Counted from the stretch's first letter, positions 3,351 through 30,590 are shown. The stretch: 64,000 nucleotides of DNA from a virus (IMGVR_UViG_3300012827_000001:19980-83979); one strand, 5' to 3'. The notes: a model not told the origin generated them from the sequence alone. Numbers and translations: made by a program.

Positions 3351-3647
3351 ATGGGACGCCGCATGAAGGAGCCACGGTTCGAGCCGACGTGGGGTGAGCG
3401 ACTGTTCAGTCGGTTGCCGCGGAGCTTTGGCTGGATCCATTTCGCCACCCGTGAGGACTTTGAGCGCGGCGATGGGTCGACGTTCGTGCGCAAGGCGTAC
3501 GTGGTGCCGGTCTTCGAGAACGAGTCGTCGCTCATCATGTTCCCTGGCATGTACATCCCCGGAACGAAGACGTTCGTGGAGTACATGAATCTGGATGCCC
3601 TGACGGAGATCATCGAAGAGGAGTGGGATGTCGACGGAGAGGATTGA
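3351..3647 (+). CDS. Hypothetical protein
   Basis: 98 aa ORF overlapping sigma gene start. Confidence 0.65.
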   Translation: MGRRMKEPRFEPTWGERLFSRLPRSFGWIHFATREDFERGDGSTFVRKAYVVPVFENESSLIMFPGMYIPGTKTFVEYMNLDALTEIIEEEWDVDGED

Positions 3648-4389
3648 CCCGGATCGACCACTGCTCCCAGCCAAGTGGGCGGCGGCGAAGGCGGGCGACG
3701 ACAAGGCTGTGGCCTGGCTCGTGGAGAGGTACCACTGGCTGGCGTTGAAGGTGGCGCGGGCGAAGAACGTGCCACCCCACTTCGACCGCGAGGACGTGGT
3801 GTCGTGGGCGAACTGGGGGCTGTTCGACGCCGTCCGGAAGTTCAAGCCGGAGGCGAACACGGACGGCAAGCTCCACGAGCATTTCATCGGCTTCGGGACG
3901 TTGCGGATCCACGGCGCGATCCTGGATGGGATGAAGGCTCCGGGTCAGTCCTGGGCAACGCGCGAGGTGTGGCGCCAGATGCGTGAGATGAAGACGACGA
4001 CCGAGCTGCTGGAGCAGTCGCTGGGTCGGCCGGTGACTCGTCGGGACGTCGCGGAACAGCTTGGAGTGCCGGAGTCGTCCCTCCCGGTGTTCCAGCAGCA
4101 GATCCCGCTGACAGCGGTGGGTACGCCGAACGACGACGACATCATGGAGTACGACTTCTTCCATGACCCGGCGACCGCGGACGCTTCTGCGGAGGTCGCC
4201 GTGATGGTCCACCGGGTCGCAGCAGCCCTGGCGGCGCTGCCCGAGGAGAGTCAGGAGTTCCTGGCTGAGACGTATCTGGGTTCGGGTGTGGTGGACGCGC
4301 CTGCGGCTGTGCGCAAGCGCCGGCGCCAGGAATCACTCCTTGCGCTGCGTGACGTGCTGCAGCGGACTCAGGTCGATCCCACGAGGTAA
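3628..4389 (+). CDS. FliA/WhiG-like sigma-70 factor with degenerate region 4.2
   Basis: Region 2 LVERYHWLALKVA...DREDVVSWANWGLFDAVRKF...IHGAILDGM; region 3 LEQSLGRPVTRRDVAEQLGV; region 4.1 AAALAALPEESQEFLAETY. Confidence 0.85.
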   Translation: MSTERIDPDRPLLPAKWAAAKAGDDKAVAWLVERYHWLALKVARAKNVPPHFDREDVVSWANWGLFDAVRKFKPEANTDGKLHEHFIGFGTLRIHGAILDGMKAPGQSWATREVWRQMREMKTTTELLEQSLGRPVTRRDVAEQLGVPESSLPVFQQQIPLTAVGTPNDDDIMEYDFFHDPATADASAEVAVMVHRVAAALAALPEESQEFLAETYLGSGVVDAPAAVRKRRRQESLLALRDVLQRTQVDPTR

Positions 4390-4406
4390 CCGGAAGGAGA
4401 ACCGAG

Positions 4407-4625
4407 ATGGCTAGACGCAGGCCGCAGGTGGTGCCACTGGACCCGCCTGTCGTGGATGTCGAGCAGGCTGTGGTGCTCACGGGGGACTGTGACGAGCCCC
4501 TGCCTGAGCGCGAGGTCGGCACTCACGTCGAGGAGGCTGTTGTCCCGTTCGAGGTTCGTCCCGACGGGTCCATTGCGCACTTCGCCCATGAGGCGGGGCG
4601 GGCTCAGCGAGAGATGGGGAGCTGA
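4407..4625 (+). CDS. Hypothetical protein
   Basis: 72 aa, AAGGAG RBS, TGATG-coupled to next gene. Confidence 0.7.
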   Translation: MARRRPQVVPLDPPVVDVEQAVVLTGDCDEPLPEREVGTHVEEAVVPFEVRPDGSIAHFAHEAGRAQREMGS

Positions 4626-5026
4626 TGACGGACTATCCGTACAAGGACACGACGAAGCCGGAGGTGACCGTCGGCCGGACTTCGCATGTCGGCGCGGCGG
4701 TCCTCAATCCGGGCTTCGCCACGGACCAGCCGGCTGACGTGCCGGGCCGGTTCCGGACGTACAAGCCGACCCTGGAGATCAGTGGTGGGTCGACGGTGGG
4801 GGTCGAGGAAGAGCTGGAGCTGACTCTCACGGCCACCTATGTCGACGCTCACGGTGAGGATGTGGAGGTCGACGCCACCGCGCGGGCGACCTGGTATTCG
4901 TCGGATGTGACGAAGGCGACTGTCGAGGCCGGCGTGGTGACGGGTGTCGCCGCGGGCTCGACGACCATCACGGCAGTGTTCGACGGTGTGACGCAGACGC
5001 AGGAAGTCACGGTGACCGCCGACTGA
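4625..5026 (+). CDS. Ig-like (Big_2-type) domain protein
   Basis: TATY.D...ATWYSSDVTKATVEAGVVTGVAAGSTTITAVFDG. Confidence 0.8.
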   Translation: MTDYPYKDTTKPEVTVGRTSHVGAAVLNPGFATDQPADVPGRFRTYKPTLEISGGSTVGVEEELELTLTATYVDAHGEDVEVDATARATWYSSDVTKATVEAGVVTGVAAGSTTITAVFDGVTQTQEVTVTAD

Positions 5027-5049
5027 CCTGGGAGGTGATCCCCATCTGC

Positions 5050-5078
5050 CTTGAGCCCCCGCTCGACGGGGGCTCAAG
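5050..5078. terminator. Perfect hairpin
   Basis: cttgagcccccg/cgggggctcaag 12-bp stem. Confidence 0.6.
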
Positions 5079-5106
5079 TGCGTGAGGGGTAAGTCGCTTC
5101 ATGACG

Positions 5107-5133
5107 AGGCCCCGACTTCGGTCGGGGCCTTTG
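5107..5133 (+). terminator. Intrinsic terminator
   Basis: aggccccgac-TTCG-gtcggggcct followed by tt. Confidence 0.75.
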
Positions 5134-5137
5134 TCGC

Positions 5138-5145
5138 GTCGAGTG
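5138..5145 (+). promoter_or_regulatory. Candidate late promoter element GTCGAGTG
   Basis: Exact octamer just after terminator, upstream of lysis cassette. Confidence 0.55.
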
Positions 5146-5188
5146 CGATGAGCAGGATCGGCGAGGGGGACGCGATGGAGCTCACGGC

Positions 5189-5641
5189 ATGACTGAGCAG
5201 AAGATGTCGGCGCGAGCACGCGCCTATCTGGGCATCACGGCAGGGTTCCACCTGTCGCTAGGTAGTTTCTGCCTTCTGGCGCCTCATGCGTTCATGTCGC
5301 CTTCGTATGAGGGTCTGCGAAACGCGATGCCTGTGCCGTATTCGTTGGATCTGGCCGCGTGGGGGGCGGTGTTCGCCCTCGTCGGCATCGCGTGCGCGTT
5401 CGCGGCGGTCTTCGGGCGCGAATCCACAGCCAGGACGTCTCTGCTGCTTTCCGTCATTGTCACGGGAGCGGTAGCGGGGTCGTTCCTCGCCAGCTGGGTG
5501 TCAGGGACGCTTCAGGGGCCGACTGGTCCGCTCGTCTGGTTGACCTTGGCGTTCAAGGACATGACGATGCTGCGCAACCCGCTCCGCAATCCGTTCGAGC
5601 CTGTCGTACAGAGGGTGCTCGCCAACACCAACGAGGGGTGA
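5189..5641 (+). CDS. Multi-pass membrane protein (lysis cassette, holin-like)
   Basis: About four hydrophobic helices, upstream of endolysin. Confidence 0.65.
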   Translation: MTEQKMSARARAYLGITAGFHLSLGSFCLLAPHAFMSPSYEGLRNAMPVPYSLDLAAWGAVFALVGIACAFAAVFGRESTARTSLLLSVIVTGAVAGSFLASWVSGTLQGPTGPLVWLTLAFKDMTMLRNPLRNPFEPVVQRVLANTNEG

Positions 5642-5680
5642 TCCCTGGTGCACGTCGCCGTTGTGGGCCAGGAGATCGCA

Positions 5681-6187: not shown

Positions 6188-6195
6188 GTCGAGCG
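6188..6195 (+). promoter_or_regulatory. Candidate late promoter element (GTCGAGCG)
   Basis: 7/8 match, 6 nt after a stop codon, upstream of endolysin. Confidence 0.4.
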
Positions 6196-6229: not shown

Positions 6230-6334
6230 ATGTCTGGTCCCGAAGACCCCGAGTTCCCCATCATCCTCGATGAGGACCTGCCCGAGGGGTTCGACCCCGA
6301 CGCGCTGGATGCGGACGAGGCGGACCCCTCGTGA
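6230..6334 (+). CDS. Small acidic peptide (34 aa)
   Basis: GGAGG RBS, MSGPEDPEFPIILDEDLPEGFDPDALDADEADPS, GTGA overlap with endolysin; absent from ORF track. Confidence 0.6.
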   Translation: MSGPEDPEFPIILDEDLPEGFDPDALDADEADPS

Positions 6335-7344
6335 GCCGCATCATCCCCCGCAGCGAGTGGGGCGCGACCCAGCCGGACGGGTTCGGCGCTCGCCCTGTCG
6401 GCTCCCTGGACAAGTGGCTTCACCACTCGGTGACCCTGGACCTTCCCGCCCCAGCATCTGAGGAGCAGGAGAAGGCACAGATGCGCCACATCGAGAAGGT
6501 GCGTCCCGACCTCGGCAGCCGGTTCCCGTACACGTTTGCGATCTTCCGCTCTGGTCGCATCTACCAGGGGCACACGGTGGGTCGTATCGGTGCGCACACG
6601 GGTGGGCGCAACAGCACCTCGGTCGGCATCGTCCTGGTTGGCAACTACCAGACGGCTGGCCCGTCGGATGCGCAGCGTCAGGCGCTTGCGTGGCTTCTTC
6701 GTCACGGCACAGACAACGGCTGGTGGAAGGTGGCGGCACTCACGGGCGGCCACCGTGACACCAAGTCGACAGCATGCCCCGGCAATGCGGCGTACGCGGC
6801 CATCCCGGGAATCAACACGCTGGCGCTCGGCGGGAGTCCGGTTTCTACGCCCTCTCCCGCTCCGACCACCCCTTCCTCGGGACGTCGGGTCCTGACGTAT
6901 GGGTCGAAGGGTGAGGACGTCAGGTTCCTGCAGTCGTTCCTCGGCCTGGCGACCGATGGGTCCTTCGGTCCTGCGACGCTGGCTGGCGTCAAGAAGTACC
7001 AGGCTGCGGTGGGCCTCGTCGCGGACGGGTCGGTTGGCCCGCTGACCTGGGCGAAGATCGGCGCCGGTGTGCGGCCCGGCGCCCCCGCTCCGGCCCCCGC
7101 TCCGGCTCCGAGCCCGAGTTCCCCGGTGCTTCGTCGTGGTTCTACGGGCCAGGCGGTGCGCAACCTGCAGGCGGGCCTGAACCGGGCCTTCCCTGCTTAC
7201 TCGAAGCTCTCCGTGGATGGAAGCTTCGGCCCCGCCACCGAGAAGGTGGTCAAGGAGTTCCAGCGCCGAGTCAGCATCGCGCAGGACGGCTCGGTCGGCC
7301 CTGTGACGCGCGGCAAGCTCGCGGCGCACGGCGTCACGTTCTGA
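6331..7344 (+). CDS. Endolysin: N-acetylmuramoyl-L-alanine amidase (amidase_2/PGRP-like) plus two peptidoglycan-binding domains
   Basis: WLHHS, YTFAI, GAHTGGRN, GHRD..STACPG; two LxxGSxGxxV...DGxFGPAT repeats. Confidence 0.92.
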   Translation: MSRIIPRSEWGATQPDGFGARPVGSLDKWLHHSVTLDLPAPASEEQEKAQMRHIEKVRPDLGSRFPYTFAIFRSGRIYQGHTVGRIGAHTGGRNSTSVGIVLVGNYQTAGPSDAQRQALAWLLRHGTDNGWWKVAALTGGHRDTKSTACPGNAAYAAIPGINTLALGGSPVSTPSPAPTTPSSGRRVLTYGSKGEDVRFLQSFLGLATDGSFGPATLAGVKKYQAAVGLVADGSVGPLTWAKIGAGVRPGAPAPAPAPAPSPSSPVLRRGSTGQAVRNLQAGLNRAFPAYSKLSVDGSFGPATEKVVKEFQRRVSIAQDGSVGPVTRGKLAAHGVTF

Positions 7345-7621: not shown

Positions 7622-7664
7622 TCGACCCCCTCATCCTGGGTAGGCGCCCGGGTGAGGGGGTCGA
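7622..7664. terminator. Long hairpin after holin
   Basis: tcgaccccctcatcctggg/cccgggtgagggggtcga. Confidence 0.65.
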
Positions 7665-7684
7665 TTGCTGCTAGCGCAGGAATC
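7663..7684. promoter_or_regulatory. 22-bp palindromic operator-like site
   Basis: GATTGCTGC TAGC GCAGGAATC; overlaps GTCGATTG at 7660. Confidence 0.75.
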
Positions 7685-10955: not shown

Positions 10956-11450
10956 ATGTCATACCACGTCCAGTCTTTCTCCTACGCGGAGTCAGTCTCT
11001 ATGCACCCCGCGCCCGATGGCGTGGTTGCCTTCACGGGGGGCGAGCCGCTCATCTGCCTGGATGGCGACTGGGCGCCGCTCCGCTGGCATGACGCCGGCG
11101 CGGTACTGGACGACTACTACGTGGCCACAGAGACCCCCGGACCTACGTGGTGGAACATCCTCCCAGACAGAAGCACTGTCTATCTGTTCCCGCTCGAAGA
11201 TGACATCACGATCAACTTCATGTCCGCCTCGGCCGAAGACACTGGCTGGAGGTCGCCCAGGGTGACGTTCGAGTTGATTCAGGATGCCACGGGGGGTCGT
11301 GCTGTCGCTCTCGCAGGTGATGTTCTCGTCCCCGGTGGGAGCTTGCCGACGGTGGACACGACTGCAGAGACGAGCACCGTGATGACGTTCCTGTTCGTCG
11401 GGCGATGCTGGGTCCTGGAGTCTTTCCAGACAGGCCTCGCGCCGGTCTAG
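10956..11450 (+). CDS. Hypothetical (tail-associated?) protein
   Basis: AAGAGG RBS; C-terminal ELIQDATGGRAVAL motif of the kind seen in tail proteins. Confidence 0.6.
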   Translation: MSYHVQSFSYAESVSMHPAPDGVVAFTGGEPLICLDGDWAPLRWHDAGAVLDDYYVATETPGPTWWNILPDRSTVYLFPLEDDITINFMSASAEDTGWRSPRVTFELIQDATGGRAVALAGDVLVPGGSLPTVDTTAETSTVMTFLFVGRCWVLESFQTGLAPV

Positions 11451-12271
11451 TCCACGCCCTTGGGGCGCTCCCGAGGCGAGTCGATGTCGTCCCACGCCGC
11501 GCCAGGCACCCACCCCTGCTTCCGCGCCCACTGCTGGTAGCGCTCGCGCCCCCACCTTCCCTTCCCGGAGGGGAGTAGGGGCGCTTGCTGCTTGCTGAGC
11601 TCCCGGTACAGGGCGTCGACCCGTCGGATGGTGTCCGCGTAGCCCTTCGTCCTGAAGCCGTGGAGTTCTCTTTCCAGGACGCGCCGATTGATCCCGAGAC
11701 GGTCGGCCAGGTAGGGGACGGACCAGCCCTCCGCCACGAGGGCCTGGAGGCGCCTCTGCATCCCCAGCGCGGGCAGGTAGCCGTTGTGCTTGGGGGGAGC
11801 CGGCCTGACGCCCAGGAGGGCCTCTGCGGTCGTCTGGGTGACGCTCTTGCGGTGCCCGTTGAGCACCTTGGAGATGGTCTCCAGGCAGACGCCGGACCGT
11901 GCCGCGATGTCCTGCCGAGTCATACTTGTGACTAGAGAATTCAGATGCTTCTCGACGGGCTGCACCGGGAGGTACCCCCCGGTGCCTTTCAGTCGCTTGT
12001 CCCTGTACCAGAGGTTCCGATCTACCCTGTAGGCGGCACTGCAGGCCGGGCAGTGGCAGTCGTCCCGGCGGTACATGGTCGCAGTGCCGTGTTCGTGGAT
12101 GCCGCCGTGCGCGCAGACCTTCGGTGTGGTGTCGATCCGTGCACGCCTGGCGGCGCCCCGTTCCCGACTTGCCGCCAGGGCAATCTGCGTCTCGCACTTG
12201 TGCTTGGCCATGCCGAGCTTGCTGCCCTCGTATGGGCACGTCGGGCATCTCAGGGTTGTAGTGGTCGGCAT
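11447..12271 (-). CDS. DNA-binding protein: Cys/His cluster plus two HTH domains (repressor candidate)
   Basis: HGTATMY...CHCPAC; MTRQDIAARSGVCLETISKVLNG; LQALVAEGWSVPYLADRLG. Confidence 0.8.
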   Translation of the reverse strand: MPTTTTLRCPTCPYEGSKLGMAKHKCETQIALAASRERGAARRARIDTTPKVCAHGGIHEHGTATMYRRDDCHCPACSAAYRVDRNLWYRDKRLKGTGGYLPVQPVEKHLNSLVTSMTRQDIAARSGVCLETISKVLNGHRKSVTQTTAEALLGVRPAPPKHNGYLPALGMQRRLQALVAEGWSVPYLADRLGINRRVLERELHGFRTKGYADTIRRVDALYRELSKQQAPLLPSGKGRWGRERYQQWARKQGWVPGAAWDDIDSPRERPKGVD

Positions 12272-14535: not shown

Positions 14536-15107
14536 GCGCGGTCGACTGGGCTGCCGAGTTCAGCAACTTTCCCCCAGCCTTCCACAGGCTTCTGGCCGAC
14601 CTTCTGGCGGAGATCGAGGCCGAGCGAGCCCGAGAGCAGGGCGTCAAGCTCGCGGGCGGCAGGAGGGCTCAGCAGCCGTCAGGGTCCATGCAGGACGTCG
14701 TGGACGTGGTCTACCCGCGGCGTTCGCAGAAGCCGTTCAGGGAGGCTCTGGCTGAGGCGACGGATCAGCCGCCGGCCACGGTCGCCGCCTTGGCTGGCAT
14801 GAATCCGGGGACCATGTTCAGGCTGCGCAATGGACGCCGCCCGCTGACCAAGGACACCCTTGAGCAGATCGCTAGGGCCATTCACGTTGATCCGGGCTAC
14901 TTCCATGAGTACCGGGTTCTGGTGGTTCATGAGGCGATCGATGCGCTGCTGACCCCGCTCCGCTCCCTGCAGGCGTACAGCTCGGTAGAGCGTGATCATC
15001 GTCGCAATCCGCGGCCCAAGACGCCGAACGCACCGAACGGCTTCAGCACCACTGCGCGGGGAGTGCTTGCATATCCGACAAAGCAGGGTCGAGAGGCTGC
15101 AGAGTGA
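14532..15107 (+). CDS. XRE-family HTH protein
   Basis: PPATVAALAGMNPGTMFRLRNGRRPLTKDTLEQIARAIHVDPGYF. Confidence 0.75.
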   Translation: MSAVDWAAEFSNFPPAFHRLLADLLAEIEAERAREQGVKLAGGRRAQQPSGSMQDVVDVVYPRRSQKPFREALAEATDQPPATVAALAGMNPGTMFRLRNGRRPLTKDTLEQIARAIHVDPGYFHEYRVLVVHEAIDALLTPLRSLQAYSSVERDHRRNPRPKTPNAPNGFSTTARGVLAYPTKQGREAAE

Positions 15108-16735
15108 CCGCTCTCGCCAACCTCAGCCAGGAAGAGCTCTACCTCTGGGGGATCCTGAACGACCCCACCGGCGTGGACATCTATGAGTTCATCGGCGTGA
15201 ACAATGAAGGCGACGGCCCTGAGCCAGCACGCCTGTGGGACTTCCAGTGGCCGTGGATGCATGCAGACGGCAAGTACCAGATCTCAGCAACCAGCCGGCA
15301 GCTGGGCAAGAGTTGGTCCGTGGCGTGGCGTGCGATGGCGTTCGCGTTTCAGGCCCCGCGTCAGGAGATGCTGTTCGTCGCGCCTCAGCAGGATCACCTT
15401 GATCTGTTGATGGCGAAGGTGGAGGAGGCATTCGACGCATACCGCCTGATGCGAGAGATGCGAGCTGCGGGGCCCACGGCAGGACTCAAGCGGGCCCCGC
15501 ACTGGCAGCTTTCGCTGAAGAACGGTGCCGTGATGATCACGCGCCTCGGGTCCAACCCGAACAGCGTCAAGGGACCGCACCCTGTGCGCATTGAGGTCGA
15601 CGAGGTCCAGGACATCCCTGTCGCGACCTACATGGAGATGGTGGAGACCATCAAGACCCACGCCCCGGGCATGAAGTGGTGGATGCACGGCGTGACAAAG
15701 GGCGTCGGGCAGGACCTTCATTATCGGCTGACGCAGAAGAAGAATCATGCCGAGGAGATCGAGGGCCCCGACTGGCGGGTTCACCACTACATCGCCGCGC
15801 ACCGTCCCACATGGAACGATGAAGAGCGCGAAACCAAGATCCGCCAGTACGGCAGTGACGAGAACCATCCTGACTATCAGCGCAACGTCCTTGGGCTGCC
15901 AGCCGATGCGGGCAACTCGCTGTTCGTCATGGCGCGACTCATGGCCTGCGTGCGTCAGCGAGAGTCCGAGTGGGCTCTGGAGTACAACGAGCAGGTCTAC
16001 ACCAGGATCAAGATCGCTGACAGTCTAGTTGCGCGCGTCAGTTCGATCGAGGCGCTGGTGGACATTCCTGTGTCGCACCTGCGTGATGAGTACATCTCTT
16101 ACTGGGGTGGGGCTGACATCGGCTTCACCAATGACCCCACCGAGATCCTCATCTTCGGCACTACGAAGGCTGGCGTGGACCGCCTACTGACGCGCGTCCA
16201 GCTCGTGCGCGTCTCAGCCAAGGATCAGGTGGCCGTTATCCGGCATCTGTTCTCTGTGTACGGAGCGAAGTTGCGTCGGTTCGGCATGGACCGCACGGGC
16301 GTGGGCCTCCCGCTGTTCCAGGAGTTGCAGGAGGTCAAGGAGATCGCCGAGCGAGTGGCGGGCTACAACTTCAGCGAGAACCGGGCCGTTGGGTTTGAGG
16401 ACAGGGAAATGAAGGCTGGGGAGAAGCAAGAAGACCTGGTCATCAAGCGAAACATCAAAGATTACGCCACGGACATTCTTCGCAAGTGGGTTGACCAGAA
16501 GAAGCTGGAGCTGCCACGAGACGAAGAGCTGCTGCAGGAGTGGGGCGGGGCGACTTCGTACATCGTCAAGACCGCACCAGACCAGGACGGCGTGAAGCGA
16601 AAGTACGGCTCTGGCGCCCTCCACACCCTTGACGGCGCGCGCATGTACGCGGCAGCCAAGGACCTCATGGCCATCGAGGAGATCCTCAACGCTACCCCGA
16701 AGCAGGCTCCGGTGCTTGATCGGTTCGTCTTCTGA
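15104..16735 (+). CDS. terL: Terminase large subunit
   Basis: Walker A SRQLGKS, Walker B IEVDEVQD, nuclease YWGGADIG, D in FGMDRTG, HTLDGARMY. Confidence 0.9.
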   Translation: MTALANLSQEELYLWGILNDPTGVDIYEFIGVNNEGDGPEPARLWDFQWPWMHADGKYQISATSRQLGKSWSVAWRAMAFAFQAPRQEMLFVAPQQDHLDLLMAKVEEAFDAYRLMREMRAAGPTAGLKRAPHWQLSLKNGAVMITRLGSNPNSVKGPHPVRIEVDEVQDIPVATYMEMVETIKTHAPGMKWWMHGVTKGVGQDLHYRLTQKKNHAEEIEGPDWRVHHYIAAHRPTWNDEERETKIRQYGSDENHPDYQRNVLGLPADAGNSLFVMARLMACVRQRESEWALEYNEQVYTRIKIADSLVARVSSIEALVDIPVSHLRDEYISYWGGADIGFTNDPTEILIFGTTKAGVDRLLTRVQLVRVSAKDQVAVIRHLFSVYGAKLRRFGMDRTGVGLPLFQELQEVKEIAERVAGYNFSENRAVGFEDREMKAGEKQEDLVIKRNIKDYATDILRKWVDQKKLELPRDEELLQEWGGATSYIVKTAPDQDGVKRKYGSGALHTLDGARMYAAAKDLMAIEEILNATPKQAPVLDRFVF

Positions 16736-16785: not shown

Positions 16786-16793
16786 TTCGAGTG
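16786..16793 (+). promoter_or_regulatory. Candidate late promoter element (TTCGAGTG), leaderless
   Basis: 7/8 match, exactly 8 nt before ATG 16802, which lacks an RBS. Confidence 0.5.
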
Positions 16794-17227: not shown

Positions 17228-18894
17228 GTGTGCACAGCATTGACACGGGCTTCGTCGAGGTCGCCGCCGAGAACCTGTCCGGCCTGCCGAACCGCCTGGT
17301 GGCTTCCACCGTGCGCGAGCTCGCAGGCCAGCTCTCTCAGTGGACGCAGGAACAGCGCGCCCAGAAGGGCAAGCCGACACTCTTCAGCCGGACGAAGTAT
17401 GTCTCGTCGGAGAACCCGTACGACATGATGAAGACCGCGAAGCGCGCGGTGGTTGACGATGACGTGGTCTCTGCGACCGCTGACGTCACGGAAGGCCTGA
17501 TCTTCCAGGGGTCCGCGTGGGAGTCCTCGGATGAGATCGCCTCCGCGATCATGAACAAGGTTGCCGAGGACCTGGACCTGGACAACTACTTCCGCATGGC
17601 CCACCGTGAGCTGTTCACGTACAGCCAGGTCGTGACCGCCCTGTGGTGGGGGCGCAAGGAGATCCAGCCCAACGTCCGCCGGCCCTCAGGCAAGAAGAAC
17701 AAGGACGGCTCGCCGCGCACCTACCCGTCGCGGTCGTCGTTCACGCTGAACGTGCCCACGAAGATCGTCCTGCTGGATCCGACGAAGGTCGTGCCGGTCG
17801 GCAACCGGGTGTTTGGCGAGGACCGTCTCGCGTGGCACGCCACGGACGCGACGATCGAGGCGTGGGAGAAGGGCGAGGCGAACCCGTACGCTGCCCGCGA
17901 CGAGACGATTGCCCAGCTCTTCATTGGTCGCTACCAGCCGTCGAAGGACGAAGAGGCCTGGATGGGCAGCCTCGGCATTGATCCTCGCAAGCTCATGGAG
18001 TTCAACCCTCAGGCGGTGTGGCGTCACTCGTTGACTCGCTCCTCTTACGAGGGGTTCCCTGACCTGCGCATGAAGAGTGCCTTCCGTCACCTGGACCTCA
18101 AGGCGCAGCTCATGGACTCCGACCGGGTCATGCTCGTCGGTGCGGCGAACTATCTCCTGCTGGTGAAGAAGGGTTCCGACGACCATCCGGGCCTGCCTGA
18201 GGAGATTGACAACCTTCGGGACAACTTCCAGGTGCTGGCGAAGCTGCCGGTGATCGTCTCCGACCATCGGCTGAGCATTGAGATCGTCGCGCCGAAGCTC
18301 GACACGACGCTGGACCCGAAGAAGTACGACCTGCTGGACAGCCGCATCGCAGCGCGCCTACTGGGGATCCCGCAGGTCGACACCGGCGCCCGGGGTGACC
18401 AGACAGCCGGCACGACATCTCGGATGATCGCGCGCCGCCTGGAGTCCGAGCGTCACATGCTGCGCCGCGCGACCGAGAAGCATCTCGCGAAGGCGATCTG
18501 GGAGCGCAACGAGCAGGCGCTGAGCAAGTACACCAACGTGCCCAGCTTGGCCTTCATGCCGCGCAACGTCCAGCTCGACAGCGACACGGTGATCCTGTCG
18601 GCCATCATCCAGGCGCGGAACTCCCGTGACCTGTCGCGCGAGTCGTACCTGGAGTTCTTCGGGTTCGACCAGGCCGTCGAGGCGCAGCGCATGGAGCGCG
18701 AGGCCGAGATCTACGACGACATCTTCCAGACCGCCGTACCGTTCAGCGCTGCCGGAGGCGATGGCAGTGGGGGAGGGGCTACCCCTCAGGGTGGCCGGCC
18801 GCAGGGGGGCGGGTCACCGAAGCAGTCGGCTCAGGGTGCAGTCAAGCAGCGGACGTCCACGGGGGCGCCGTCCACGGGGGGTGCAGGTAAGTGA
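17224..18894 (+). CDS. Portal protein
   Basis: 556 aa, position after TerL, helical with G/S/Q-rich tail. Confidence 0.7.
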   Translation: MSVHSIDTGFVEVAAENLSGLPNRLVASTVRELAGQLSQWTQEQRAQKGKPTLFSRTKYVSSENPYDMMKTAKRAVVDDDVVSATADVTEGLIFQGSAWESSDEIASAIMNKVAEDLDLDNYFRMAHRELFTYSQVVTALWWGRKEIQPNVRRPSGKKNKDGSPRTYPSRSSFTLNVPTKIVLLDPTKVVPVGNRVFGEDRLAWHATDATIEAWEKGEANPYAARDETIAQLFIGRYQPSKDEEAWMGSLGIDPRKLMEFNPQAVWRHSLTRSSYEGFPDLRMKSAFRHLDLKAQLMDSDRVMLVGAANYLLLVKKGSDDHPGLPEEIDNLRDNFQVLAKLPVIVSDHRLSIEIVAPKLDTTLDPKKYDLLDSRIAARLLGIPQVDTGARGDQTAGTTSRMIARRLESERHMLRRATEKHLAKAIWERNEQALSKYTNVPSLAFMPRNVQLDSDTVILSAIIQARNSRDLSRESYLEFFGFDQAVEAQRMEREAEIYDDIFQTAVPFSAAGGDGSGGGATPQGGRPQGGGSPKQSAQGAVKQRTSTGAPSTGGAGK

Positions 18895-19728: not shown

Positions 19729-19995
19729 GTGGGACTCATCGAAGCCGCAGAGGCGGGCGCCCGAGGGCATTACCAGCGCCGGCCGTGCACCCTTGGTCAG
19801 CTCATCCAGAAGATGCCCGAGCAGGATCAGCGTGATATCCAGGATCTCCTCGGCCGGGATCCCAAGATCTTCACCAACAAGGTCATCTCGCAGGCTCTTG
19901 CCCAGAATGGGTACCTCTCGCCGGGCGGGTCGCCGCTGAACCACCAGATCATCGGGCGGCACCGCCGGGGGGACTGCTGCAGTGGGGATCGCTGA
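19729..19995 (+). CDS. Hypothetical protein
   Basis: GGGAG RBS, GTG start, 88 aa; ends HRRGDCCS. Confidence 0.55.
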   Translation: MGLIEAAEAGARGHYQRRPCTLGQLIQKMPEQDQRDIQDLLGRDPKIFTNKVISQALAQNGYLSPGGSPLNHQIIGRHRRGDCCSGDR

Positions 19996-21229
19996 CGCCG
20001 CAGACGACATGGCGGCCGAGCGGACGGCGGCAGCGGAGCCAAGGCTCGTCGTGGACGCCTCGCCTCACGGTGGTGAGTTCACCGGCCTGGTGACGCAGAA
20101 GCCTGTCCGCCCTGACGAGTATGAGGGTGCGTTCGCGAAGATCTACGAGCTCGCCGGCCTGAACCCCCAGGACTACCGCATCGTCGAGGACACCGTTCGC
20201 TTCTCCGCCTGGCAGCAGTCCAAGCGCCTGGAGAACGGTGACCGGGACACGATCACCCTGTACTCGTACCGGGCCAGGTTCCAGCGGATCAGCGACCTGG
20301 AGGCCCGCACGGAGGAGGTCGTCGCAGCCCTGGCTGAGCAACTTCGCCAGCGCCGGCTCACACCCCGACGAACCCCGGGCACGGGCCTCGGTGAGCCAGC
20401 GACGTACTCGGCCCTCCTCGCCGACTGGCAGCTCGGGAAGGACACAATCCGCCCCTGCGACGCGGAGCACGGCCTGACGGGCGTTGAGCAGACTCAGTGG
20501 CGGGTGGAGCGTGCCGTTGAGCTGTCGCGCGCGCGGATCAAGAACCTGCGTCGGGTCGGTCGGAACATCAACGGTGTCGCCTTGGGCATGATGGGTGACA
20601 TCACGGAGAACATCGCTGACAGCTACGAGAACCAGGCGCACTCCGTGACTCTCAACCTCACGGACCAGATCCTGCGCGGCCTCGACCTGATGGTGTGGGT
20701 CTGCGAGGAACTTCTTCCGCTGGCGTCTGAGGCAGACGTCTTCGCGGTTCTCTGCAACCACGGTCAGCTCGCACGCCGGGGAACGAAGACGAACATCACG
20801 AACGACGCGGACAACGTGCAGAACCTGTTGATTCGCCTCCTGCGTGACAGGATTGTTGGTCCCAAGCTCCCGCACGTCCGCTGGCATGAGCCCGGTGAGA
20901 ACATGATCACGACGCTGGAGCTCTCAGGTGTTCCGACTGCCGCGGCCCACGGGCATAAGATCAAGGGCGGGGAGGACGCCTGGCTTCTGAAGCAGACCGC
21001 CAATCTCGCAGCCACGCGGGGGGTCGCCCCAAGGGTCTGGCTGACAGCGCACCGGCACTCGCAGAACGTGGTCGACCTTGGCGCGATCCACAGGATCCAG
21101 GCAGCCACCGCGGACGGCGGAAGCAAGTTCTTCACCGACCAGTCTGCGATCTACTCCACACCCGGAACAACGACGCTGCTCATTGGCAATCACGACGAAC
21201 GCGGGTTCTCTGACCTCGAACTTCTCTGA
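19982..21229 (+). CDS. Calcineurin-like metallophosphoesterase (Mre11-like)
   Basis: ADWQLG, MGDITEN, CNHG, AHGH, TAHRH metal-binding motifs. Confidence 0.8.
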   Translation: MGIADAADDMAAERTAAAEPRLVVDASPHGGEFTGLVTQKPVRPDEYEGAFAKIYELAGLNPQDYRIVEDTVRFSAWQQSKRLENGDRDTITLYSYRARFQRISDLEARTEEVVAALAEQLRQRRLTPRRTPGTGLGEPATYSALLADWQLGKDTIRPCDAEHGLTGVEQTQWRVERAVELSRARIKNLRRVGRNINGVALGMMGDITENIADSYENQAHSVTLNLTDQILRGLDLMVWVCEELLPLASEADVFAVLCNHGQLARRGTKTNITNDADNVQNLLIRLLRDRIVGPKLPHVRWHEPGENMITTLELSGVPTAAAHGHKIKGGEDAWLLKQTANLAATRGVAPRVWLTAHRHSQNVVDLGAIHRIQAATADGGSKFFTDQSAIYSTPGTTTLLIGNHDERGFSDLELL

Positions 21230-21234: not shown

Positions 21235-21266
21235 ACGGGGGCTGTCGGCACAACGGCAGCCCCCGT
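21235..21266 (+). terminator. Hairpin terminator
   Basis: acgggggctgtcg/cggcagcccccgt. Confidence 0.65.
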
Positions 21267-21286: not shown

Positions 21287-21294
21287 GTCGAGTG
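21287..21294 (+). promoter_or_regulatory. Candidate late promoter element GTCGAGTG
   Basis: Exact octamer after terminator; continues ACTCCTCGTGAAG, nearly identical to 30511 site. Confidence 0.6.
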
Positions 21295-21348
21295 ACTCCT
21301 CGTGAAGGCCCAGGGGCCTGAACTTCACGACACGAGGAGGAATGGCTC

Positions 21349-23424: not shown

Positions 23425-23468
23425 CACAACGGCGGCCCTGCCTCTTCGGAGGCGGGGCCGCCGTTGTG
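23425..23468 (+). terminator. 20-bp hairpin with TTCG loop
   Basis: cacaacggcggccctgcctc-TTCG-gaggcggggccgccgttgtg. Confidence 0.8.
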
Positions 23469-23501
23469 TGTCGATCTCTTTCCTTGACACAAGGAGGAAT
23501 C

Positions 23502-23945: not shown

Positions 23946-24577
23946 CGACGTTGCTTGATGCTGCCCGTGTCTATGTTGATGGGCAGTGGGTGCAGGCGGC
24001 GTATCTCGGCCAGGACCGCCTTGCGCGCGTGCGGACGAATCTTCAGCCCACGCCGCGCCTGCAGGCCGCGTCGGGGTGGTTGTCGATCCTGTCGGCCCCA
24101 GCTTGGGGCACGTGGGAAGGCGGTTTCGGTGCCGTCCTGCGGAGAACGTCGACAGGGTCGGCGCGTTCAGGAATTCAGTCACAGAACGCTCTCGGTTCGG
24201 TGGGAGCATTTCCTACGGGTGTGCCCATGACGATAGGCGTGGATGCCGCTCGTGGCCCGCTCATGCTGGGGGGAGTGACGTTGCGCGTCATGCTTTTCGA
24301 TGGCGGGACTACTCAGCGCGCAGTGGCTTCCACTCCTGCGTTGCTTGCATCGCGTCAGCGGTACACGATCACACTTACGCCGAACGGAGTGTGGAATCGT
24401 CTCTACCTCGATTTCATGGATGCCGCCGGCAACGCCGATGACATCGCCGGATATCTCGACCGCCTCACCATCGAAGTCGGATCAAGTGGCGGTTCATATT
24501 TCGATGGCGACACTGACCGTGCTGAGTGGACGGGCACGCCGAGCGCCAGCCCGAGCACTCTCTGGTCGGCCGGCTGA
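23942..24577 (+). CDS. Virion protein with carbohydrate-binding-like beta sandwich
   Basis: RTNLQPTP...; YFDGDT...EWTGTP motif typical of actinophage minor virion proteins. Confidence 0.55.
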   Translation: MTTLLDAARVYVDGQWVQAAYLGQDRLARVRTNLQPTPRLQAASGWLSILSAPAWGTWEGGFGAVLRRTSTGSARSGIQSQNALGSVGAFPTGVPMTIGVDAARGPLMLGGVTLRVMLFDGGTTQRAVASTPALLASRQRYTITLTPNGVWNRLYLDFMDAAGNADDIAGYLDRLTIEVGSSGGSYFDGDTDRAEWTGTPSASPSTLWSAG

Positions 24578-24648
24578 TCCGGAGTCGATGTCTGTTCGTG
24601 TAGCACCGAGTGCGGTGCTGGGAACAGAGATCCACCCTGGAGGAGCAG

Positions 24649-25131
24649 ATGAGCGAGACCCTTTCCCCGGAGACCTGGGAGAAGACGATCCCGGGCGGCG
24701 TGTGGGTGCTGACCGTGGACCACGTCGGCAACGAGAAGCCGAAGCGACTCAAAGGCCCGTCGGGCTTCCGGTTCCGTGTCCACCCGCGTGAGCGCGAGGC
24801 GGTGAGCGCCAAGTACGCGTTCCCGGAGCAGGACCCGTTCCGCAATGGCATCCTCAAGCCGGTGAGCCTGACCCCGGATGAGGTCGACGAGCGCGTTCCG
24901 GATCATGACTCCGAGCAGGCTCTGAACAACGAGGACCTGGTCGCGCTGTTCGCGAAGAGCGGTATGGCGTTCCACTCCGCAGTGAAGAAGCTCAACGAGG
25001 TGAACGCCCGCCGGCTGCTGGATCTGGCCGGCGAGAACGCTGAGGCGGTGACGACCGCTCAGAAGGAGTTTCTGGAGAAGCACGTCGCGGAGAACTTCCT
25101 CAAGCAGACCACGGGCCACGGCGTCGACTGA
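24649..25131 (+). CDS. Hypothetical protein
   Basis: GGAGGAG RBS, 160 aa. Confidence 0.7.
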   Translation: MSETLSPETWEKTIPGGVWVLTVDHVGNEKPKRLKGPSGFRFRVHPREREAVSAKYAFPEQDPFRNGILKPVSLTPDEVDERVPDHDSEQALNNEDLVALFAKSGMAFHSAVKKLNEVNARRLLDLAGENAEAVTTAQKEFLEKHVAENFLKQTTGHGVD

Positions 25132-25137
25132 GGGGCT

Positions 25138-25182
25138 GAGGGCCCACCGGTCGTGCTGGGGGAATCCGGCCGGTGGGCCCTC
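25138..25182 (+). terminator. Hairpin terminator
   Basis: gagggcccaccggtcg/cggccggtgggccctc. Confidence 0.65.
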
Positions 25183-25189
25183 GCCGTAG

Positions 25190-25197
25190 GTCGAGTG
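25190..25197 (+). promoter_or_regulatory. Candidate late promoter element GTCGAGTG, leaderless
   Basis: Exact octamer 7 nt after hairpin and exactly 8 nt before ATG 25206. Confidence 0.6.
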
Positions 25198-25205: not shown

Positions 25206-25703
25206 ATGACAGACGTCAGCGACCTGGTGGGCGCCTACAAGCGCGAGGTGTCTGCCCTTGGTGATTTCGACGCGGCGTTCCCGAATGCCACCGATGCGGC
25301 GATCACCGGGCTCCTGATGGACGCGTTCGGTGAGGCTCAGCTCGACGGGTTCTTCCAGACGATGACGCTGGACGTGGACCTGGAAGCCGTCACTCCGGAT
25401 CTGTCGGCGGCGGGTGCGGCCCTTGTGGTTCTGTACGCCGGCATCAAGACCCTCCGCAACCAGATCCTCACCGCGGGCGCAGAGTCGCGCTACAAGGCTG
25501 GCCCGGTGGAGTACCTGACGAAGCAGAACTCGTACGCGCAGACCGAGCTGTTGAAGCAGCTTGAGCGTCGCCGTGACGGGCTCATCGAGCAGGCGCGGTA
25601 CGGCCGGGGGACCCCGGTGTACCAGATGGATGCGTACTCTGCGCGGGGCCTGGCCGCTATCGGCGGCTTCGCGTCCTATGAGACGGCCCTCGGGGGCTGG
25701 TGA
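25206..25703 (+). CDS. Putative head-tail adaptor
   Basis: Position; SRYKAGPVEY motif. Confidence 0.5.
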   Translation: MTDVSDLVGAYKREVSALGDFDAAFPNATDAAITGLLMDAFGEAQLDGFFQTMTLDVDLEAVTPDLSAAGAALVVLYAGIKTLRNQILTAGAESRYKAGPVEYLTKQNSYAQTELLKQLERRRDGLIEQARYGRGTPVYQMDAYSARGLAAIGGFASYETALGGW

Positions 25704-27455: not shown

Positions 27456-28216
27456 TGGCCACCCCGCCGCGGTTGATCCGGCGGATCCCGATCTCCGACA
27501 CGGGCTTGTTCCTGACGGTGTGGGTGCGATCCACCTCGAACAGCGGTGTGTTCGGCGCTTTGAACGAGCGGGCGTCAGCCGACCAGTGGCCGCGGATCTT
27601 GGCGTTCCTGTCGCGCTACTACGAGGCGATGGCGAACGAGATTAACGACCTTGCGGTGTCGGAGTTCGAGAAGACCCGCCGGCGGGGGTGGGTTGCGACG
27701 AACCGTCTGAAGGCAGCGCTGACGGATGAGCGGAACATGTTCATCCCGGGGTCGAAGGACGCGCTCTACGTGGGCGTGCCGGGGTTCCTTGACAACTCGC
27801 AGGCCAAGTACTGGCGCCAGATCGAGGAGGGCTCGCGGGTTCACGTCGGCCGTCTCATCCACGGCGTCTGGGGGTCGAAGCTGTCAGGCGGGTGGGCACA
27901 GGGACGCACGGGACGTTACGCCCTAGCGTCGTCCCCGTACTCGCCGCACGGCAAGGGGTCGGGGCAGAAGTTCCAACCCCTGTCGACGATGGAGGGCACG
28001 CTCTCCGAGGTCAGGCGCAAGCACCCGGGGATGTCGACCGAGGCGCGCATCGGCAGGGCCATCCCGAAGTCGGACTACTACACGAAGGCGTGGGAGCAGT
28101 TCCGGCGCACGAACCGGCCGCTGCAGCTGCTCCGTGCAGCGTTCACGCAGCAGTTCGGGCTGAAGGCTCCGACGTCATACGAGGGCCTCATGAACGGCAT
28201 CCTTGACAACACCTAG
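27455..28216 (+). CDS. Hypothetical (neck/tail completion?) protein
   Basis: TGATG coupling, basic 253 aa. Confidence 0.6.
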   Translation: MATPPRLIRRIPISDTGLFLTVWVRSTSNSGVFGALNERASADQWPRILAFLSRYYEAMANEINDLAVSEFEKTRRRGWVATNRLKAALTDERNMFIPGSKDALYVGVPGFLDNSQAKYWRQIEEGSRVHVGRLIHGVWGSKLSGGWAQGRTGRYALASSPYSPHGKGSGQKFQPLSTMEGTLSEVRRKHPGMSTEARIGRAIPKSDYYTKAWEQFRRTNRPLQLLRAAFTQQFGLKAPTSYEGLMNGILDNT

Positions 28217-28822
28217 CTCGATGGCCTTGGTGAGGTCGGCGCAGGACTGTGCGTAGGCGGCTCGATAGAGGGTGACCCACGCCTGGAGCTTCTTGCCCCG
28301 CAGTTGGTCCACTTGGGCGTGGGTCATGGTCTCCATCCTTGCGGTCCCTAGCTCGCCCTCTGGCAGGCTGGGGATGAACTTCAGGCCCTTCAGGACCTCC
28401 GCTGCCTCCCGGAGGATGGGGATCCATGTCCCGTCGATCAACCAGCCCATCCGCCAGGGCAGATCGACGGGGTCAAGGCCGCCCAGCCAGGGGTCGGCGC
28501 CTTTAGGCCCGGTGGCCATCAGATCCTTCAGTGCAAGTGGGGCGCGGCGGAGCAAGTTGATCATTTCGCGGTCGTGGCGCAGGTTGACGATGCGGGTCAC
28601 CACCTTCTGGCGAGCGACCCAGAGGGCTTGGTGCACATCCCGACCGTTCCAGGTCGGCTGAAGCGCCTCCGGGCAGGCGATGCCAGCCTCAACGCCCCAC
28701 CCGGTGCAGGTCCGGTAGTCCCAGGCGATCTGGTCGGGCTCGTGCAGCCAGTCCATCGCCCGGCCCATGCCCCAGGCGTACACCTCTTCCTGGGTGGCGT
28801 AGGGGTTGTCGATCGTCGGCAT
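28175..28822 (-). CDS. Hypothetical Trp-rich protein, antisense to structural operon
   Basis: Fills the 28217-28960 gap; start uncertain (track start 28894). Confidence 0.6.
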   Translation of the reverse strand: MPTIDNPYATQEEVYAWGMGRAMDWLHEPDQIAWDYRTCTGWGVEAGIACPEALQPTWNGRDVHQALWVARQKVVTRIVNLRHDREMINLLRRAPLALKDLMATGPKGADPWLGGLDPVDLPWRMGWLIDGTWIPILREAAEVLKGLKFIPSLPEGELGTARMETMTHAQVDQLRGKKLQAWVTLYRAAYAQSCADLTKAIELGVVKDAVHEALV

Positions 28823-28865
28823 GTGCTCATGGTGCCTCTGGCGGCGCACGAGGTCCAGGTCCAGC

Positions 28866-28887
28866 GATTCCTGCGCCCGCAGAGATG
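28866..28887. promoter_or_regulatory. 22-bp palindromic operator-like site
   Basis: GATTCCTGC GCCC GCAGAGATG. Confidence 0.55.
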
Positions 28888-28895
28888 TTGGCACT

Positions 28896-28903
28896 GTCGA
28901 GTG
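28896..28903 (+). promoter_or_regulatory. Candidate late promoter element GTCGAGTG
   Basis: Exact octamer upstream of major tail gene. Confidence 0.55.
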
Positions 28904-28963
28904 ATGCCTCTGATGGGGCCACTAGACGCTGCGCCCCTTGGACTCATCTAGGAGGGCGATCTA

Positions 28964-30466
28964 GTGGCGATCAAGGCCGGATCCATGATTACCGCCGGGA
29001 ACGGCCAGGCGCTCATCGAGCGTCTGCAGTCCGGCGGCCCTGGGACGCTGAACATCCCCAAGGAGAAGATCTACGAGCTCGGCAACTACGAGTCGGTTGC
29101 GACCGTCTACGACACGCCCGAGCTGACGTTCACACTGGAGTCGTTCGACGTCTCCACGGACACCGAGCAGATGCTCGTGGACGCGACCACGGCTGATGTG
29201 CTGACGAACGGCATCGACCTGGCTGCCGCCAAGTCGCTCAACATCGCGCAGAACTTCAAGCCGGGCAAGAAGCTCGCGAACCCGTACGTTGCGGCGAACG
29301 GTGTCGCGATCCCGGCGCTGATGATCGAGAGCGCTTCGTACCGTTTTGGTCTGCGCGAGAACGCGACCGAGACGTTCACACTGCGCGGCGACTCGATCTA
29401 CTACTGCCCCGGCGCGGTGTACGTCGACCAGTACACGGGTACGAACACGCCCGGCCAGACGGTCGTCACGACGCACCCGGGCTACCCGTACACGGACTCG
29501 AACGGCACGCGGCGCATTCTGGCCGTGACGGTTGGGACGAAGCGACTCACCGAGGGCCCTGACTTCACGGTGACCTACGGCACCATCACCGCTGACGCGG
29601 CCATCGCGACGGTGACGGTGACTGAGGCGGTCCCGGTGACCGACACGATTCGCGTGATGTACCACTCGCCGGACACGATCACGTACCCGCAGGAGATCCA
29701 CACTCCGGCGACGCTGAAGCCGGCGGCCGTCAAGGGCAAGGACATCGACATCTACGTCGGTGGCTATGACCCGGAGGACCCGGCGGCCTCGGCGGCGAAC
29801 AAGCTCACGGGTGTCCAGGATGTGACGCTGGAGTGGCGGGTGACGCAGGAGGAAGAGCGCGAGTTCGGCAACCCGAACGCAGTCTCGCGTGACTTCGACG
29901 TCCCGACGGTGAACGGCACGATCGGGATCCTTCCGCGTGACGTCCCGGACCTGTACTCGAAGCTCCGCAAGATCACGGGTGTCTCCTCGACGACGGCTGC
30001 GATCGGCCCGGACCTGGCGGCACTGCTTCCGCTGGACATCATCATCAAGGACGCGGAGTCCGGTGGGACCACGCTCAAGCGGTTCCACGTGCCGGACGTT
30101 CGGTTCTCTCTGCCTGGTTACGCCCCGCGAGTCGAGCAGAACGTCACGCTGTCGCTGGAGTGGGAGTCCGACACGGGCGCCCTGACCATCCACCGCGACC
30201 TGGGCGACCCGGTCGTGACGGGTCTTGACCCGGCGACCGACGACGAGGCCGGCGGTGCGGAGGTCGTCATCACGGGTGCGAACTTTGTCGGCGTGACGGC
30301 TGTGGCGTTCGGTGCGGTCCCGGCGACGTCGTACACGGTGGACAACCACCGCCAGATCACGGCCATCGCCCCGGCGGGCACGGGCACGGTCGACGTCACC
30401 GTGACGACCGCGGCCGGCACCTCGGTCGCGAGCGACGACTCGGAGTTCGTCTACACCGACGACTGA
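28964..30466 (+). CDS. Major tail protein with C-terminal IPT/TIG domain
   Basis: 500 aa before chaperone and tape measure; PVVTGLDP...VVITGANF...QITAIAPAGTGTVDVTVTT. Confidence 0.8.
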   Translation: MAIKAGSMITAGNGQALIERLQSGGPGTLNIPKEKIYELGNYESVATVYDTPELTFTLESFDVSTDTEQMLVDATTADVLTNGIDLAAAKSLNIAQNFKPGKKLANPYVAANGVAIPALMIESASYRFGLRENATETFTLRGDSIYYCPGAVYVDQYTGTNTPGQTVVTTHPGYPYTDSNGTRRILAVTVGTKRLTEGPDFTVTYGTITADAAIATVTVTEAVPVTDTIRVMYHSPDTITYPQEIHTPATLKPAAVKGKDIDIYVGGYDPEDPAASAANKLTGVQDVTLEWRVTQEEEREFGNPNAVSRDFDVPTVNGTIGILPRDVPDLYSKLRKITGVSSTTAAIGPDLAALLPLDIIIKDAESGGTTLKRFHVPDVRFSLPGYAPRVEQNVTLSLEWESDTGALTIHRDLGDPVVTGLDPATDDEAGGAEVVITGANFVGVTAVAFGAVPATSYTVDNHRQITAIAPAGTGTVDVTVTTAAGTSVASDDSEFVYTDD

Positions 30467-30510
30467 TCCGCTCGTCCCGCTTGTTCAGCGGGAGGGCCAC
30501 CCAGAGGCCG

Positions 30511-30518
30511 GTCGAGTG
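30511..30518 (+). promoter_or_regulatory. Candidate late promoter element GTCGAGTG
   Basis: Exact octamer after hairpin 30468-30497; continues CTCCTCGTGAAG. Confidence 0.6.
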
Positions 30519-30590
30519 CTCCTCGTGAAGAGGGGCCTCGACCGGCCTCTGTTCTTTGGACTGGGGCAGTACCGGGATTGGGAGGGCCTG

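Follow-up and report, generated by a model that had tools for sequence, protein, structure and literature searches.

Phage-encoded sigma factors that switch on late genes are classical, as in T4 (gp55) and SPO1. The late promoters of T4 gp55 consist of a -10 element only, TATAAATA, and gp55 itself, a minimal protein that resembles region 2, acts together with gp33 and the sliding clamp. The SPO1 sigmas gp28 and gp33/34 act in a temporal cascade at bipartite promoters with -35 and -10 elements. Promoters of the cellular sigma-28 group (FliA, SigD, WhiG) have a well-conserved -35, TAAA, separated by about 15-16 nucleotides (nt) from the -10, GCCGATAA. A switch to phage-encoded sigmas is also mentioned in a published account (PMC13401047). 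Here we analyze a 64,000-nt stretch, the window, of an uncultured soil actinophage genome of 83,979 bp (IMGVR_UViG_3300012827_000001, an IMG/VR record with terminal repeats), of which it represents bases 19980-83979; positions are those of the window unless stated otherwise. It encodes a FliA/WhiG-like sigma factor of 253 amino acids (aa) on the plus strand (3628..4389), and a short box recurs between its late genes, with the consensus GTCGA(G/T)NN in this group of phages and mostly as GTCGAGTG here. From comparisons among related phages we consider it likely that this box is the -10-type element of late promoters, probably their sole sequence-specific element, and that it is read by the phage sigma.

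The locus shares some features with each of the described systems and departs from each in others. As in the sigma-28 group, regions 2 and 3 of the protein align best with WhiG/FliA, the equivalent of FliA R91 is kept, and the box retains the first-position G and the central CGA that form the conserved part of the WhiG-family -10. It differs from that group in having no -35, in the 3' half of the box (GTG here, whereas the sigma-28 -10 ends in TAA), in the deletion of the first helix of the helix-turn-helix (HTH) of region 4.2, and in being phage-encoded instead of cellular, with boxes placed before virion and lysis genes. Like T4 gp55, the protein is a phage-encoded factor of the sigma family with, on the sequence evidence, a single -10-type element for late genes; unlike the minimal gp55, it retains region 3, region 4.1 and the final helix of 4.2, and whereas gp55 needs gp33 and the clamp, here a small conserved open reading frame (ORF) precedes the sigma gene. 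With SPO1 it would share the replacement of the host sigma by a phage sigma with its own class of promoters, which in SPO1 are bipartite; in the present phage a single element can be seen, and part of the transcripts would have no leader. Within the literature collection searched, no paper turned up on actinophage sigmas of the FliA/WhiG type whose promoters lack a -35 and are in part leaderless. The features contributed here are the CGAG variant of the box, a partial deletion of region 4.2 beside relatives that keep this region, a pyrimidine/purine (Y/R) signature downstream of the box and a box placed within a hairpin.

Distribution, conservation and geometry of the box

The genome has a GC content of 66% and the same terminal 48 bases at both ends. 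Genes were called with the author's own codon-usage caller, a heuristic that gave about 136 genes and left some 9-10% of the genome intergenic; the first arm (genome 1-19.6 kb) carries minus-strand genes and the remainder plus-strand genes. The present phage (G000 in the comparisons) was set beside three IMG/VR records that carry the sigma, G001 (81 kb), G002 (87 kb, a provirus) and G003 (a 43-kb fragment), and beside two further records, L104 and L106, which were added by an alignment-based metagenome scan with the protein of gene 25206; a scan of viral contigs with that single protein returned nothing.

A preliminary description of the window had proposed a -10-only late transcription system with exact copies of GTCGAGTG at 5138, 21287, 25190, 28896 and 30511, one-mismatch copies at 6188, 7660 and 16786, and weaker GTCGA-core copies at 23470 and 24584. 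All of these copies exist at those positions, and the whole genome holds no further exact copy on the plus strand; the single minus-strand copy, at 52235, lies within a gene. Frequency alone is uninformative, because the total of six copies matches the 6.04 expected by chance. The comparison of intergenic and coding copies, which the preliminary description had suggested as a check, placed all five exact plus-strand copies in intergenic DNA. When three complete related genomes were pooled, GTCGAGT[GA] was intergenic in 14 of its 22 plus-strand copies and in none of the four on the minus strand, with 8% expected (p = 7e-11, a value that overstates independence because orthologous sites are related and not statistically independent). 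An unbiased ranking of 7-mers by intergenic enrichment over the three pooled phages put TCGAGTG at rank 12 of 13,229, the words above it belonging mostly to an operator palindrome, plus a few others.

Seven orthologous late junctions keep the box in G000, G001, G002 and L104, plus L106. One lies behind the terminase and one behind the gene at the capsid position, three precede the gene at the scaffold position, a 160-aa gene and the 'MTD' gene (25206), respectively, and the last two flank the gene of a 500-aa tail protein. Mean pairwise identity at these junctions is 0.89 over the box and 0.98 over the GTCGA core, compared with 0.37 in the upstream flank and 0.38 in the downstream one, and the weaker copies at 16786, 23470 and 24584 gain support from orthologous copies in the other phages. 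In G003, the record with the most divergent sigma (about 40% identity), GTCGAT(C/T)N is found at nine late junctions. This variant is nearer to the sigma-28 consensus than the box of the present phage: GTCGAT variants match GCCGATAA at five of eight positions, and GTCGAGTG at four. One might object that the motif was picked after the sequence had been viewed and that its total count is that of chance, so that the boxes would reflect chance or the neutral conservation of intergenic DNA that diverged recently. We give this explanation almost no weight, as identity has fallen to 37% in the flanks and stands at 89-98% in the box, the box recurs in a phage with a 40%-identical sigma, and the strand and placement bias is that given above.

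The geometry downstream of the box is fixed in two gene families, in which the start codon follows the box by exactly 8 nt in nine of nine cases, with conserved N-termini; the 8-nt distance to the ATGs at 16802 and 25206, pointed out earlier for this phage, is exact. No conserved Shine-Dalgarno sequence was found in the 8-nt spacers of these two families. Among 40 candidate sites taken from six records, 36 have a pyrimidine as the 8th base downstream of the box and 38 a purine as the 9th, and the bases adjoining these two show no comparable bias. Both conditions hold jointly at 36 of the 40 sites, compared with 21% of 360 coding GTCGA[GT] copies and 24% of intergenic dinucleotides. Bacterial RNA polymerase usually prefers a pyrimidine at -1 and a purine at +1, and on account of the Y/R signature the predicted transcription start is the 9th base after the box. 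In the two families the start codon begins with this base (A or G), and genes 16802 and 25206 are probably leaderless. In the open complex of Pseudomonas aeruginosa sigma-28, GCCGATAA occupies -15 to -8 (PMC12784957); the box described here would cover -16 to -9, 1 nt off the solved complex.

Two boxes placed 8 nt before start codons could also be expected of an element that acts in RNA, for processing, as a ribosome stand-by site or as an odd Shine-Dalgarno-like sequence, within one long late transcript; GAGTG is loosely like part of GGAGGTG, and the nearby hairpins could be processing or stability elements. Most of the other boxes, however, lie 24-73 nt from the start codon, with a separate strong GGAGG near the start, for which the box was rejected as a Shine-Dalgarno sequence. 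The 8-nt spacers themselves lack a conserved one, and the likeness to the sigma-28 CGA core, together with the co-occurrence of box and sigma, would be a coincidence. We therefore regard an RNA element as very improbable. A site on DNA for a late regulator (an activator, a loading site for antitermination or a roadblock), with no -10 function, would agree with a box that is short, strand-specific, intergenic and conserved, and at 30511 the box belongs to an invariant 12-bp stem. Yet no host-type -10 or -35 accompanies the box, the distance from box to hairpin varies from 2 to 22 nt, and the fixed 8 nt to start codons and the Y/R bases at +8/+9 are what a -10 element predicts and would not be anticipated for a regulator; such a regulator site seems to us a quite unlikely explanation.

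The reading of the box as a -10 element with no partner upstream agrees with the information content of the aligned sites, which exceeds 0.5 bit solely in the box and at +8 to +10; nothing upstream reaches 0.5 bit. In none of five genomes did any 4- or 5-mer at a fixed distance (+/-1) from -42 to -12 stand out over shuffled controls, which bears out the reported absence of a shared -35. The only pooled upstream signal was a marginal GTTC (8 of 38 sites), which by eye comes mostly from the scaffold and post-terminase junctions. A scan of positions 1-32000 for sigma-70-type promoters yielded 0 sites. Two candidate -35 sequences were rejected: CTTGC-N17/18, present at two of eight G001 sites and no better than shuffled sequence, and ACTAAAG as a sigma-28 -35, which is part of an array of four repeat units and has no -10-like partner at the right distance.

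The sigma factor and its region 4.2

The protein encoded at 3628..4389 keeps regions 2, 3 and 4.1, as had been described. Its residues 32-164 match TIGR02479 (NCBIfam) with E = 2.7e-17 and 63 bits, the cut-off being 189.6, and PRK06288 (WhiG) is matched with 1.5e-15; because all scores fall below the curated whole-protein cut-offs, we treat the protein as a divergent relative and not as an equivalog. Pfam gave weak matches to regions 2 and 3 and no match to region 4 (PF04545). With a profile of the family, the best relative in the PDB was Streptomyces venezuelae WhiG (6PFV, 1e-53), and Escherichia coli FliA (6PMI) was matched at 1e-49. The label 'WhiG-derived' is thus reasonable in view of the best solved relative, with the reservation that the scores are well below the family cut-offs. 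An AlphaFold2 (AF2) model had a mean predicted local distance difference test (pLDDT) score of 83.6, and the matches listed in a fold search were all sigma factors or models including one. R112 aligns with R91 of E. coli FliA (6pmi_F) and is invariant in the family alignment. In P. aeruginosa sigma-28, R97 reads the extended -10 (PMC12784957), and this residue would be the equivalent of E. coli R91.

Region 4.2 is altered in part. In alignment A1, seven to eight residues are missing at the first helix of its HTH in this sigma and in its nearest relative, P0002, and the AF2 model has helices at residues 184-203, 206-217 and 226-247 with a loop at 218-225. The recognition-helix-like AAVRKRRRQESLLALRDVL and the arginine-rich last helix are retained. 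The earlier claim of an eroded region 4.2 therefore applies to the first HTH helix, in keeping with the lack of a PF04545 match and the modeled loop, and does not extend to the recognition helix. Matches to TIGR02937 (165 positions) end at position 131 in this sigma, 134 in that of G003, 157 in G001 and 164 in G002. Mean identity within the phage family is 74% in region 2 and 42% in region 4.2, while among cellular FliA proteins both regions show 42%, the latter in a small sample of three proteins. The G003 sigma (L022:12247-12987, minus strand) ends about 16 residues early in region 4.2, a change that differs from the deletion described here; it looks independent of it, and an assembly error is possible.

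The preliminary description had made the erosion of region 4.2 the cause of the -10-only design. This link is not supported, because the relatives G001 and G002, in which region 4 is detectable, use the same -35-less box. To judge from this comparison, the decay of region 4.2 probably follows from independence of a -35 and is not its cause. The simplest reading would be that contact with a -35 was already dispensable, leaving region 4.2 under relaxed constraint, with two separate truncations.

About 20 close relatives of the sigma were found, all of them metagenomic, and an identical sigma is carried by a contig of 494 kb. Identity to the sigma of the present phage is 63-67% in G001 and 53-55% in G002. 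A tblastn search of cultured phages with the sigma returned merely two matches of 30% identity, to fragments of gut phages, and a scan of genome contigs returned cellular FliA/SigD only, at no more than 37% identity. The box and a FliA/WhiG-like sigma occur together in all four phage records, in each of which this sigma is the only full-length match to the sigma-70 family. A 455-aa sigma-like protein (291-1658) has no homologue in G001 or G002, in a search whose positive control worked. Because of its presence in all four records and the restricted occurrence of the 455-aa protein, the WhiG-like sigma would be the best supported reader of the box.

The box could instead be a promoter element read by another factor, such as a host alternative sigma (e.g. 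WhiG), the 455-aa protein or a host holoenzyme recruited by an activator. Palindromic operators do lie upstream of two junctions, and the GTC of the box resembles many -10 elements of extracytoplasmic function (ECF) sigmas. Each candidate meets a difficulty, however: ECF sigmas require a -35 and none is present, a host WhiG is expected to need a -35 of the TAAA type, and the 455-aa protein is missing from G001 and G002, which use the same box, and has beside its gene repeats of a different motif, whereas the WhiG-like sigma is found in all four records. We consider a reader other than the phage sigma unlikely.

The -10-only late promoters of the preliminary description accordingly keep comparative support from strand bias, conservation, the 8-nt spacing, the Y/R signature and the lack of a -35, and lose the erosion of region 4.2 as their cause. 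Several points weigh against reading the box as a stand-alone -10 element of this sigma. Independence of a -35 is unusual for the family, since cellular sigma-28/WhiG promoters keep theirs. The 6-mer GTCGA[GT] is frequent in coding DNA (103 plus-strand copies), so that specificity would need the full 8-mer, its context or an unseen factor. Several phages have a palindromic operator 20-45 nt ahead of the box at two junctions, where a bound protein could supply an upstream contact. The arginine-rich recognition helix of region 4.2 is conserved in most members of the family, which suggests that it still has some role. To these may be added the heuristic gene calls and the relatedness of orthologous sites mentioned above, and the fact that we infer from sequence the promoter role, the reading by this sigma, the start positions and the timing.

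The start of the sigma gene is overlapped over 20 nt by a 94-aa ORF (3363..3647, plus strand) without a family match, Pfam included. All four phage records have a weakly conserved ORF immediately ahead of the sigma gene, with 27-30% identity to the copy in the window and nine invariant residues. Its product may be a partner of the sigma, perhaps a co-activator or an anti-sigma; the small ORFs beside the sigma gene gave no family matches, in searches in which an anti-sigma was not specifically sought.

Hairpins and individual late junctions

Since a terminator scan based on T-runs is insensitive in GC-rich DNA, we used the folding energies of 60-nt windows. Strong hairpins, in the top 0-3% of such windows, end 2-22 nt upstream of the boxes at 5138, 21287, 23470, 24584 and 25190; no upstream hairpin was found by folding energy at 6188, 16786 and 28896, and the box at 30511 lies inside a hairpin. 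The cassettes of terminator followed by promoter that had been proposed are therefore found at about half of the sites. Boxes and hairpins described below are all on the plus strand.

The exact GTCGAGTG at 5138..5145 stands 43 nt ahead of gene 5189-5641, with its predicted start at 5154 and C-A at +8/+9. A terminator-like hairpin followed by TTTG (5106..5131) lies 6 nt upstream of it, and the 60 nt preceding the box fold at -33.1 kcal/mol (top 0.6% of windows). At 6188..6195, GTCGAGCG precedes a small ORF and the endolysin gene (6331-7344) with T-G at +8/+9, and is a candidate without backing from orthologues. The GTCGATTG at 7660..7667 has an ambiguous status because it overlaps the left half of a palindromic operator, and it may be a repressible promoter, a mere operator half-site or both. 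G001 has GTCGATCC ahead of a 125-aa gene at 4351, whose place in the gene order is like that of gene 7710, a likeness by position alone. Two more intergenic copies of GTCGATCC were seen in the present phage, at 10941, which is 7 nt before the ATG at 10956, and at 24082; both may belong, as weaker representatives, to this class of promoters.

The large terminase gene (15104-16735) is followed by TTCGAGTG at 16786..16793, exactly 8 nt before the ATG at 16802, and the gene after the terminase shows the arrangement of box, 8 nt and ATG or GTG in four of four phages, each protein starting with MP... The portal gene occupies 17230-18894. After gene 19982-21229, a terminator-like hairpin (21235..21266; -30.9 kcal/mol, top 2% of windows) precedes the exact box at 21287..21294, which is ahead of the presumed scaffold and capsid genes (21349 onward) and is kept in G001, G002 and L104. 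Downstream of this box there is a conserved 5' leader hairpin (21296..21340), the 3' arm of which takes in the Shine-Dalgarno sequence of gene 21349 at the scaffold position; 7 of its 17 pairs show compensatory changes (RNAalifold, five phages). This leader hairpin could be a 5'-terminal stabilizer or a translational control of the head genes.

The strongest hairpin of the region (23425..23468; -46.2 kcal/mol, lower than all 1500 sampled windows) follows the 321-aa gene at the capsid position and is succeeded by GTCGATCT, a weaker variant of the box, at 23470..23477, 24 nt before gene 23502; the orthologous place in G001 has GTCGATCG. The box at 24584..24591, GTCGATGT, is 57 nt before gene 24649, and its orthologues are GTCGATCT in G001 and GTCGAGGG in G002. 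After gene 24649-25131, a terminator-like hairpin (25132..25187; -42.4 kcal/mol, top 0.1% of windows) is followed by the exact box at 25190..25197; the ATG at 25206 comes exactly 8 nt after it and opens the 'MTD' gene, at which box, 8 nt and ATG are found in five of five phages, with each protein starting MTD or MTE.

The exact box at 28896..28903 lies 60 nt before the gene of the 500-aa protein (28964-30466), the presumed major tail protein, which has a C-terminal immunoglobulin-like (TIG) domain; this box is kept in G001, G002 and L104 despite unrelated flanks. Just before the tail gene, a minus-strand gene of 239 aa without a family match (28175-28894) opposes the direction of the late genes, and G001 and G002 also have a minus-strand gene at this place. 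The short divergent gap beside it holds both the box at 28896 and a degenerate operator.

After the 500-aa gene, the box at 30511-30518 forms part of the 5' arm of a hairpin (30502..30551; -47.8 kcal/mol). Four phages have an identical lower stem of 12 bp, and compensatory changes are seen in the upper stem. Transcription is predicted to start at 30527, in the apical loop, and an RNA begun at that base would be missing the 5' arm needed to form the hairpin. The gene after this box probably starts at the in-frame ATG at 30591, with GGGAGGG ahead of it, in preference to 30516. As noted before, 21287 and 30511 share an additional CTCCTCGTGAAG; the sharing is real, and CTCCTCGTGAAG was rejected as a part of the motif since it is not kept at the orthologues of 30511.

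These observations would fit the following scheme. Host core RNA polymerase would take up the phage sigma, the gene of which would belong to an earlier operon under the palindromic operator. The holoenzyme would recognize the box, with its CGA core standing for the invariant CGA of the sigma-28/WhiG -10, and would begin transcription at the purine 9 nt downstream; at 16802 and 25206 that purine would be the first base of the start codon and the mRNA would be leaderless. Hairpins would stop transcription coming from upstream and the box would restart it, making the lysis and virion genes separately dosed units. At 30511, transcripts from upstream would fold the hairpin, and those started at the box, without its 5' arm, would read on. 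No contact of region 4.2 with a -35 would be required, which would explain the decay of region 4.2 here and in G003.

A more specific picture, which we offer tentatively as possible rather than probable, is that of a sigma-28/WhiG-type sigma working without -35 contact and with region 4.2 decaying independently in the present phage plus P0002 and in G003, as intermediates on the way to a gp55-like state, together with a promoter in the 5' arm of a terminator that ends one unit and starts the next. If the scheme is true, repressor-controlled early operons would lead to the phage sigma and this to many short late units bounded by hairpins. If confirmed, it would explain the timing and dosing of lysis and virion genes in a large group of uncultured soil actinophages, and would provide a sigma-28-family factor able to work without a -35, with natural variants that have or lack an intact region 4.2. 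It would also offer a compact orthogonal transcription module for high-GC Actinobacteria, made of a small sigma and an 8-bp box with a defined start, leaderless in some cases, and the promoter within a terminator at 30511 would be a testable design for insulating adjacent transcription units.

Other repeated elements and neighboring genes

Some other genes of the window could be named. The homologue of Lsr2 encoded at 2616-2969 points to an actinobacterial host. A collagen-like tail fiber protein is also among the recognizable genes, and a 1809-aa ORF (31687-37116) is taken as the tape measure by size and position alone. Most late genes stayed nameless in searches of PHROGs and Pfam, and a megablast of 20 kb against cultured phages gave no match at the DNA level. 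A search with PF00940 for a phage RNA polymerase gave no match, and none was obtained in the control genomes either.

The strongest intergenic-enriched word belongs to a palindromic, operator-like site, GATTCCTGC, 4 bases and GCAGGAATC, with about 11 copies. They include those at 2346, 3292, 7670, 12323, 12454, 13748, 44352 and 56316, and two that precede the window, at -18265 and -973. CGC/GCG often flanks the site, and 12 of the 15 copies of its GCTAGC are intergenic. The sigma operon has copies of the site on its flanks, as has a divergent region next to the gene of an HTH protein (11447-12211, minus strand), a candidate repressor, and related phages carry operator variants of their own.

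Four tandem units with a spacing of 78-103 bp, each consisting of CTCTCACCTACTAAAGCG, about 10 bases and GAACCTTTCCGG, lie at window -101 to 230 (genome 19878-20210). The two genome arms are separated by a gap of 648 bp, which holds these units next to the gene of the 455-aa protein (291-1658), and the CTAAAG within the units has no sigma-28-like -10 partner. A second intergenic element consists of GTCGATG followed by a short inverted repeat (CGATGCC...GGCATCG) and was found at 2242 and 59139 in the window, at 79 and 2778 in G001 and at 25419 and 35902 in G002. In the present phage and in G001 this element is located upstream of the Lsr2/sigma region.

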